The translations under genes were made by a program, and so were the position numbers. The notes beneath the pieces were generated by a model. It worked only from the letters and a program-made list of their open reading frames with translations. It was not told the origin of the DNA and did not search any database. Source: a virus (taxonomy: Duplodnaviria; Heunggongvirae; Uroviricota; Caudoviricetes). Taken from it: 14,865 nucleotides of DNA. The stretch lies in the IMG/VR virus record IMGVR_UViG_2531839179_000012; one strand, given 5' to 3'. This document shows positions 10,090-10,984 of this stretch, one piece after another; the stretch's first letter is position 1, and every line of letters begins with the position of its first letter.

Positions 10090-10984
10090 TCTTCTGCTCG
10101 ATTTTGGACATCCGGTTGCTTATTACCCTGGGCTCGTTAAATACATGGGAAGTCCGCACGCTGTTATTTTCTTTGGTCAGATTTTTTACTGGCAGGATAA
10201 AGCACATGCAGCGGAAGGCGTACATAAAACGCGTGAAGAGATACAACACGAAACCGGACTTACATTTGAACAACAGGCTGTAGCGCGTAAGCATCTTGTG
10301 TCCAGAGGCATTTTGGTTGAAACCAACAAGCGTCTTGAGCACAAAATGTTCTACCGTATAGATTGTGAGCGCCTTAATGAAATTATCAATGAAAACAATC
10401 AGTTTTCCCGAAATGGGGAAACCCGTTTTCGGGAAACTGTAAAACCCAATTTCGCGGAGGAGGGAAAGCCTTCACCGCGGACACGGGAAACCCCTCGCCG
10501 CGGAGAAGGGAAAACCAATTTCGATCTTACAGAGAATACAACAGAGATTACTTCAGAGAATACTACAGAGAGTAAAAACACTATTGGCGCATCCGCTGAC
10601 GCGTCTGCACCAGCGCGTTCTGCCCGACAGGAATATTCACCGGAATTTGAACAGGCCTGGCAGGAATATCCAAAACGTGCTGGTGGTAACTCAAAATCCG
10701 CAGCCTTCAAAGCCTGGAAAGCCCGGCTCAGGGAGGGAATAAAACCTGAAGCCATGCTTGATGGCGTGAAACGCTATGCTGCCTGGGTACGTGCCACAGG
10801 AAATACCGGCACACAGTTCGTGAAGCAGGCTGCGACGTTCTTTGGACCCGATCGTCACTTCGAAGACTTCTGGCAACAGCCAGCCGCTCCCGGAGGTGGG
10901 CGACAGCGACAGGTCGATGTCCTGGCTGGCCTGGGAGCCATGTCTGACAAATTCGGTAAATCCAGTGACAAACTGACATTCTGA
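10076..10984 (+). CDS. Phage replication initiator (functional analogue of lambda O) carrying an internal iteron array
   Basis: Sits immediately upstream of the DnaC-like loader. A GGGAGG ribosome-binding site precedes the ATG at 10076 (the track starts at GTG 10070). The central linker is encoded by the direct repeats at 10402-10580, the same arrangement as the origin inside lambda O. The family of the N- and C-terminal domains was not confidently recognised. Confidence 0.6.
   Translation: MRPSDLLLDFGHPVAYYPGLVKYMGSPHAVIFFGQIFYWQDKAHAAEGVHKTREEIQHETGLTFEQQAVARKHLVSRGILVETNKRLEHKMFYRIDCERLNEIINENNQFSRNGETRFRETVKPNFAEEGKPSPRTRETPRRGEGKTNFDLTENTTEITSENTTESKNTIGASADASAPARSARQEYSPEFEQAWQEYPKRAGGNSKSAAFKAWKARLREGIKPEAMLDGVKRYAAWVRATGNTGTQFVKQAATFFGPDRHFEDFWQQPAAPGGGRQRQVDVLAGLGAMSDKFGKSSDKLTF
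10402..10580. repeat. Candidate origin of replication: iteron-like direct repeats plus an adjacent AT-rich repeat block, inside the initiator gene
   Basis: GGGAAA-core repeats at 10415, 10431, 10462, 10485 and 10508. The two best copies are 23-bp units (gggaaagccttcaccgcggacac and gggaaacccctcgccgcggagaa, 18/23 identical), with a third at the same 23-bp spacing. Dyad TTTTCCCGAAA / GTTTTCGGGAAAC at 10404-10437. Downstream, CAGAGAATAC repeats at 10530 and 10554. Confidence 0.45.

Follow-up and report, generated by a model that had tools for sequence, protein, structure and literature searches.

The window analysed here is a stretch of 14,865 nt (14.9 kb) from a virus of the Caudoviricetes and is only part of a prophage. 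At its centre of interest is a gene for a putative replication initiator, which contains two adjoining arrays of short direct repeats at 10404-10575, one with a period of 23 bp (the iterons) and one with a period of 12 bp (the 12-mer block). These repeats are examined here as a candidate replication origin. The features concerned are the following:

10076-10984, + strand: replication initiator gene, 302 aa, phrog_270 'replication initiation protein'
10393-10415, strand not assigned: degenerate 'unit 0', which contains the inverted half-site TTTCCCGAAA (10404-10413)
10416-10530, + strand: five head-to-tail 23-bp iterons (GGGAAAcCC..TTCGcGG) with starts at 10416, 10439, 10462, 10485 and 10508; consensus GGGAAACCCnnnTTCGcG
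10528-10575, + strand: 12-bp repeat array TACAGAGAWTAC x3.7, read as T-E-N/I-T, proposed DNA unwinding element
10452-10500, strand not assigned: stable segment to the left of the 12-mer block, inside the iterons (nearest-neighbour stability, bottom 0.5% of the window)
10584-10632, strand not assigned: very stable GC-rich segment to the right of the 12-mer block (nearest-neighbour stability, bottom 0.1% of the window)

The iteron array consists of five units and a degenerate sixth, with an exact period of 23 bp. A repeat finder returned copies of GGGAAAcCC..TTCG at 10416, 10439, 10485 and 10508 (spacing 23/46/23), and Tandem Repeats Finder (TRF) reported a period-23 array at 10453-10513. The + strand of the window has 12 copies of the hexamer GGGAAA, of which five are phased within 98 bp and a sixth, at 10431, is likewise inside the array. 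When up to two mismatches were allowed, the iteron pattern gave five matches in the array and one elsewhere in the window. The self-match at a lag of 23 was 0.60 over 10403-10531, as compared to 0.249 +/- 0.05 window-wide, and for lags of 8-39 this array was the top self-match of the whole window. TRF detected no array comparable to the period-23/period-12 pair elsewhere in the window. Altogether, the repeat pattern at 10404-10575 is far beyond chance.

Some symmetry could also be identified in the iterons. The half-site TTTCCCGAAA is the inverted complement of part of unit 1, with which it forms a near-palindrome (inverted repeats I3 and I4), and the iteron pattern matches the reverse strand at 10409-10424, a position that is kept in the orthologues. 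A 'terminator-like' match on the minus strand at 10421-10404 was discarded, as it is merely the palindromic first iteron. The profile of 25 units from five Enterobacterales loci reads GGGAAACCC...TTCG.G, and a perfect GGGAAA-N6-TTTCCC is present in some Burkholderia relatives.

Regarding the 12-mer block, TRF gave a period-12 array of TACAGAGAATAC x3.7 at 10528-10571, and the repeat finder gave three overlapping 21-nt copies of CAGAGAATACAACAGAGATTA with 12-bp spacing. Exact copies of CAGAGAATAC stand at 10530 and 10554, and an exact copy of CAGAGATTAC at 10542. By nearest-neighbour stability, every other 48-bp duplex of the gene is more stable than the block, which belongs to the top 0.2-0.6% of the window. 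Flanked by the two stable segments listed above, this low-stability block looks like the profile expected of an unwinding element.

Two further observations concern the borders of the block. A GATC (Dam site) at 10523-10526 lies exactly where the last iteron meets the first 12-mer (TTCGATCTTACAGAG); it is kept in the Enterobacterales loci, and at the same place Burkholderia relatives have GTTAAC and Aaphi23 the near-match GTTAAT. Behind the 12-mer region of P22 (locus positions 1960-1985), of Aaphi23 (~1925-1950) and of a Burkholderia metagenome-assembled genome (~2845-2865) stands a short C-rich motif, CCCCCTTACCCCC(T/C)AA(A)GGGG, which the window lacks.

Turning to the protein, the start codon was assigned to the ATG at 10076, because orthologues begin with MRPSDLL. 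The sequence matched phrog_270 'replication initiation protein' (E 6.2e-65, residues 28-301) and phrog_9773 'replication initiation O-like' (E 1.2e-36, residues 2-203), these PHROG family names being annotations; in RefSeq the gene is named 'LvrA C-terminal domain-related protein'. No Pfam family at E <= 0.01 and no NCBIfam match was obtained. The AlphaFold model, built from 15 homologues, predicts a winged-helix-like N-domain (residues 19-110, pLDDT 70-82), a disordered stretch (residues 109-184, by conversion nt 10400-10627) and a helical C-domain (residues 189-256). As the repeats at 10404-10575 correspond to residues 110-167, this modelled domain layout would place them in the linker-coding part of the gene. 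Foldseek against the PDB returned winged-helix DNA binders of the ArsR/MarR, AspA and plasmid Rep types, all with E 0.02 or worse; the fold search thus gives weak support for a DNA-binding fold and assigns no family. No solved structures related to the initiator by sequence were found. We propose that the iterons at 10416-10530 are binding sites for the initiator N-domain.

Membership in two known groups was considered and rejected. A single-pair BLASTP comparison with lambda O gave E 0.039 over 26 residues, and with no Phage_rep_O Pfam match the protein does not belong to the lambda O family by sequence. Nor does the locus fall into the iteron-plasmid Rep/origin class, as there is no Rep_3-type Pfam match and there are no flanking DnaA boxes. 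With P22 gp18 no significant protein similarity was detected.

Several of these results bear on the original prediction for this DNA, which had been made from the letters alone. The prediction of at least five GGGAAA-core repeats was recovered by the repeat finder, by TRF and by reading the sequence in a 23-bp register, and the statement that 23-bp units are identical at 18/23 positions is correct, by count, for the units at 10462 and 10485. The placement within the linker-coding part agrees with the predicted disorder of residues 109-184. As for the description of a block as 'AT-rich', it is appropriate for the 12-mer block, since 10528-10582 has 33% GC as compared to 48% for the window, but not for the iteron part, which has 54% GC.

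To separate selection on DNA from selection on protein, the reading frame is informative. Because 23 is not a multiple of 3, successive units fall in all three frames (they start at codon positions 2, 1, 3, 2 and 1), and this frame shift between units causes the same GGGAAA to be read as G-E-T, R-E-T, V-K-P, E-G-K and G-K-T. Synonymous recoding of the segment gave a mean lag-23 score of 0.42, and 0/5000 recodings reached the observed 0.60. In the conservation profile of the alignment described below, the period-3 power of 4.97 falls to 0.006, and periodicity at 23 and 11.5 bp is confined to the iteron stretch.

Conservation was then described on an alignment of 525 nt of the window with the orthologous loci of Yersinia, Morganella, two Serratia and Proteus. 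From the N-domain across the iterons to the third 12-mer unit this alignment is gap-free; gaps are confined to the array's 3' end, from ~column 486 onwards. Mean pairwise conservation at codon positions 1/2/3 was 0.74/0.84/0.43 in the N-domain coding segment, 0.64/0.66/0.66 in the iteron segment and 0.89/0.82/0.88 in the 12-mer block. In these Enterobacterales orthologues, third codon positions are therefore as conserved as first and second ones in the iteron/12-mer stretch only. The N-domain coding segment is under ordinary protein selection; the iterons and 12-mers are not. Within the units, the conserved positions are GAAA.C and TTCGCGGA.

For the 12-mers, the codon usage of 16 loci points in the same direction. 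The block is in the same reading frame in these loci, and its Thr codons are ACA or ACT in all but one case, even in phages of 61-66% GC; in PEp14 they are ACA/ACT in 7/7 cases against a background of 0.10 (p = 7e-8). The Glu codon is always GAG, even in phages of Staphylococcus and Bacillus, in which the GAG background is 0.23-0.32. Such a choice of Thr and Glu codons against the genomic bias indicates strong nucleotide-level selection on the block. Overall, the repeats act as DNA signals and not as protein repeats.

We then compared iterons among relatives of the N-domain. A genome scan with an N-domain profile yielded 11 loci with 49-85% identity (Yersinia, Morganella, Proteus, Serratia, Burkholderia and Paraburkholderia), and BcepIL02, DC1, Aaphi23 and Acinetobacter phages came from a search among phages. 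In 11/11 genome loci and in the 3/3 phages that were inspected (BcepIL02, Aaphi23 and WCHABP12), the N-domain is immediately followed by a phased 23-bp array. The arrays have three to seven units and most of them have a GAAA..TTTCG core in common; the C-domains differ. From their sequences, initiators with other N-domains carry other iterons in the same layout and with the same 23-bp period. An E. coli prophage initiator that has only the 40-bp core of the 12-mer block in common with the window carries five GGTCAAAATG units, 23 bp apart, and Erwinia PEp14, Pseudomonas CF63a, Vibrio PVP-XSN, Bacillus PM1 and BtCS33, and Staphylococcus phage 37 each have a repeat of their own. Over 105 loci, with pairs that are not independent, iteron-profile similarity was 0.36 for similar N-domains with different C-domains, 0.23 for different N-domains with similar C-domains, and 0.26 for the background in which both differ. 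To tell C-domains apart, explicit alignments were relied on, as single-linkage BLAST clustering of the C-domains merged too much.

The 12-mer block is distributed still more widely. A blastn search with 71 nt around the block matched 91 phage records, Gram-positive phages included; nearly all of the listed matches lie in annotated or unannotated initiator-type genes, one being labelled tape-measure and one transcriptional regulator. A 40-bp core of the block is present in 1634/5426 complete E. coli genomes, in initiator genes that are otherwise dissimilar. When IMG/VR was scanned for exact copies of ACAGAGAWTACWACAGAGAWTAC, at least 120 contigs were obtained, from which 84 non-redundant usable loci were taken. 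The block lies in a long open reading frame (ORF), in the T-E-x-T frame, in 82/84 of these loci, and when the 138 bp upstream of the 12-mers are matched against themselves, a lag of exactly 23 bp scores best in 72/84. Those 23-bp arrays that were inspected directly adjoin the block on its 5' side. Phages of hosts that range from Staphylococcus and Bacillus to Burkholderia thus have the block in common, at the nucleotide level, in their initiator genes; lambda and P22 have a diverged version, with ACAAAAGA-type repeats, at the same position. Keyword literature searches on iterons in these phages returned nothing specific, and a description of the 12-mer block was not found in the searchable literature, which did not cover older reviews.

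Downstream of the initiator gene two further replication genes were identified:

10995-11873, + strand: DnaC-like AAA+ helicase loader, proposed partner of the initiator (Pfam IstB_IS21 and Bac_DnaA; phrog_50 'DnaC-like helicase loader', E 1e-88)
11870-13261, + strand: DnaB-family replicative helicase gene, in two ORFs with DnaB N-terminal and C-terminal matches

Codon 193 of the helicase gene is followed by one in-frame stop, shortly ahead of the Walker A motif. Phage Stx1_14040 has an intact gene of 1401 nt, with which the alignment is gap-free at 91% identity; the prophage's own helicase is probably non-functional. Upstream of the initiator lie a cI-like repressor, a cro-like gene, insertion sequence (IS) transposase ORFs, two Rha/Ash regulators and a small ORF; the replication genes are followed by a RusA-like resolvase and a Q-like antiterminator. 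The repeat region stands in the early rightward operon; the cI/cro-like pair precedes it, and the DnaC-like and DnaB-like genes follow immediately. The helicase stop together with the IS in the early operon suggests a decaying prophage. Over the iterons and 12-mers, identity to deposited Stx phage genomes is 100%.

Some details of this neighbourhood are worth recording. Transposase-like ORFs are located at 933-1751, 1836-2987 and 6115-6959, and one transposase set, flanked by the cro-like gene (5772-5981) and by the Rha/Ant genes, falls within the early rightward operon expected to transcribe the replication genes. The 615-aa ORF at 8012-9859 is probably over-called: only its residues 335-614 match Ash and Rha regulator domains, and its annotated counterpart in Stx1_14040 has 1023 nt. 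The small ORF at 9856-10089 (77 aa, phrog_1153) and the start of the initiator gene have 14 nt in common. In other genera the N-domain homologues are not preceded by a relative of this ORF, and it was rejected as a reader of the iterons because it is not conserved with the N-domain.

By sequence, this replication module matches the 'Eru7' type of Stx phages. The gene at 10076-10984 is 99.9% identical to that of a prophage of E. coli O121 strain 201805972, and the region 9800-11200 is ~96% identical to Stx1a- and Stx2a-converting phages, LC567818 included. With LC567818 (Stx2_14040), which is the Eru7 representative phage in the typing of Llarena et al. (PMC8951638), identity was 95.8% over 76% of the 9800-11200 query and 100% over the iterons and 12-mers. 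Eru7 is described in the typing study as the most widespread Stx-phage replication type in Europe (PMC8951638). The typing study took the Rha/Ash genes beside cI as the type-defining 'replication' genes (PMC8951638); our comparison points to 10076-10984 as the initiator and to 10404-10575 as the origin rather than to the Rha/Ash genes. Concrete targets are thereby supplied for phages whose replication drives toxin gene dosage.

Taking this sequence evidence together, we consider it likely that the prophage has its theta-type replication origin at 10404-10575, where its initiator gene codes for the linker. A possible mechanism can be drawn up by analogy with oriλ. The N-terminal winged-helix domain of the initiator would bind the five to six 23-bp-phased iterons, and the resulting nucleoprotein complex would stress the adjoining low-stability TACAGAGAWTAC x3.7 array, which would melt between its GC-rich stable segments. 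The C-domain would recruit the DnaC-like loader encoded by the neighbouring gene, and the loader would place a DnaB-type helicase, which in intact relatives is a phage product, onto the opened DNA. On the same analogy we infer binding, melting and helicase loading; this particular copy may no longer be able to fire.

A number of points weigh against this assignment. With 33% GC, the 12-mer block is only moderately AT-rich. The internal symmetry of the iterons is partial (GAAA-N5/6-TTTC, with a best palindrome score of 0.46 in the 25-unit profile), and the winged-helix assignment is weak, given pLDDT values of 70-82 and Foldseek E values of 0.02 or above. The iteron sequence appears to follow the N-domain and not the C-domain, and this contrast is modest and drawn from non-independent pairs. 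No DnaA boxes were found near the repeats, the only two matches in the window (1812 and 11555) being at chance level, and promoter-like sites and terminators near the repeats were likewise at chance level, with no enrichment. The copy in the window may be inactive, in view of the helicase stop and of the IS between the cro-like gene and the replication genes. Finally, the typing study states that nothing is known on the Eru7 replication proteins (PMC8951638).

Other explanations of the repeats also have to be weighed. One is that they mirror a repetitive, low-complexity linker (G-E-T/R-E-T and T-E-N-T peptides) that has no function as DNA; the original prediction had itself named such an amino-acid repeat constraint, coupled with no binding by the initiator, as the finding that would speak against it. 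This explanation would suit the predicted disorder of the linker, the 12-mer period, which is divisible by three and always read as T-E-x-T, and the raised lag-23 score (0.42) that is kept by amino-acid-preserving recodings. It does not account for 23-bp units that occupy all three frames, for a periodicity above that of all 5000 recodings, for third positions whose conservation equals that of the other two in this stretch alone, or for Thr ACA/ACT and Glu GAG codons chosen against the genomic bias. On these grounds it was ruled out, and we regard it as very improbable indeed. A different question is whether the iterons are initiator-binding sites that serve autoregulation, copy control or inhibition by titration, handcuffing or a transcription roadblock, with replication starting elsewhere. 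Sequence alone separates no operator array from an origin, and plasmid and lambda iterons are known to be inhibitory as well, the lambda ITN silencing replication when placed on a plasmid (PMC3349717). However, the array always adjoins the conserved low-stability block, as in mapped or annotated origins, and no other array of comparable score is present in the 14.9-kb window, itself only part of the prophage; a purely regulatory role thus appears quite improbable.

The third explanation concerns the 12-mer block, which might mainly be a 'linker' for homologous recombination, by which modules of N-domain plus iterons are swapped against C-domain modules, rather than an unwinding element. We consider this unlikely, even if the same block joins many combinations of N-domain and C-domain, its 40-bp core recurs in those 1634/5426 E. 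coli genomes in otherwise dissimilar initiator genes, and a uniform reading frame is the expected product of recombination inside the block. Nucleotide conservation between Firmicutes and Proteobacteria, with far-diverged N-domains, is left unexplained by recombination among co-resident phages, and the position beside the iterons and the low stability fit an unwinding element. The two roles are, moreover, not mutually exclusive.

Beyond the assignment of 10404-10575 as an origin, we tentatively suggest, as a possibility that is open to considerable doubt, one phylum-spanning origin design, in which iterons of any sequence and of a fixed 23-bp period are joined directly to TACAGAGAWTAC 12-mers that are conserved against codon bias. 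A simple model in which an AT-rich region melts would not predict such conservation, which would suggest a sequence-specific step. If the design is real, this step would belong to origin opening or helicase loading, and a candidate for it is the recognition of one 12-mer strand by a conserved surface of the winged-helix initiator superfamily. The 23-bp phase and the 12-mer block form a simple signature that pointed to candidate origins in 72/84 non-redundant viral contigs and could be used to annotate origins in temperate phages of Gram-negative and Gram-positive hosts.

As to known systems, we would place the candidate origin of the window in the known class 'origin inside initiator gene', with a specificity of its own. 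That the arrangement is the one of lambda, as originally predicted, is borne out by direct comparison with oriλ and with the P22 gene 18 origin. The accompanying claim of a distinct initiator specificity is likewise supported by the lack of detectable sequence similarity to lambda O or P22 gp18, by the lack of a Pfam match, and by iterons that follow the N-domain family.

Iteron plasmids offer a first parallel. In RK2 (oriV/TrfA), F (RepE) and pPS10 (RepA), winged-helix Reps bind phased iterons of ~17-22 bp beside a short-repeat unwinding element, and they also bind one strand of this element sequence-specifically (PMC4081077; PMC4980987). Unlike the candidate origin in the window, plasmid origins lie outside the rep gene and usually have DnaA boxes. 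More similar in layout are SPP1 oriL (gene 38, replisome organiser G38P) and the putative origin in ORF20 of Staphylococcus phage 80α, in which the origin is embedded in an initiator gene of the replisome-organiser type, SPP1 being compared by description only. ORF20 of 80α is not complemented in trans, from which its authors infer an origin within it, as in SPP1 gene 38 (PMC5499656), and the 80α record shows repeats followed by an AT-rich repeat stretch, as in the window. The differences are Gram-positive hosts, other repeat sequences, an AT-rich part that in 80α is ACTAATAAT-like and not the TACAGAGA block of the window, and the absence of a Pfam replisome-organiser match in the window protein.

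In oriλ, four annotated iterons are followed by an AT-rich stretch, all inside O (PMC3349717), and in the record annotation the iterons start at 39034, 39054, 39078 and 39101, that is 20, 24 and 23 bp apart. Like oriλ and the lambda-type Stx phages 933W and P27, the window has its candidate origin inside the initiator gene, between the DNA-binding and the partner-binding parts (PMC3349717; PMC7466680). Further features in common with lambda-type origins are four to six direct repeats that start 20-24 bp apart, an AT-rich, easily opened stretch on the same side, and the position in the early rightward operon. Unlike in lambda, the initiator has no detectable similarity to O, the iterons are unrelated and their spacing is strictly 23 bp; the AT-rich part is a regular 12-bp TACAGAGAWTAC instead of ACAAAAGA-type stretches, and the place of lambda P as partner is taken by a DnaC-like ATPase and a DnaB-like helicase.

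The origin of P22, annotated in its record as rep_origin 32840-32984 inside gene 18, differs from the window in the sequences of iterons and 12-mers, in the lack of significant protein similarity and in having no DnaC-like loader gene. The layout is shared: TCGGTAAAAC iterons ~23 bp apart are followed directly by 12-bp ACAAAAGACAAT repeats within the initiator gene, and a DnaB-type helicase gene lies downstream, as in the window. By sequence comparison, the P22 gene 18 origin is the closest architectural match to the repeats at 10404-10575.

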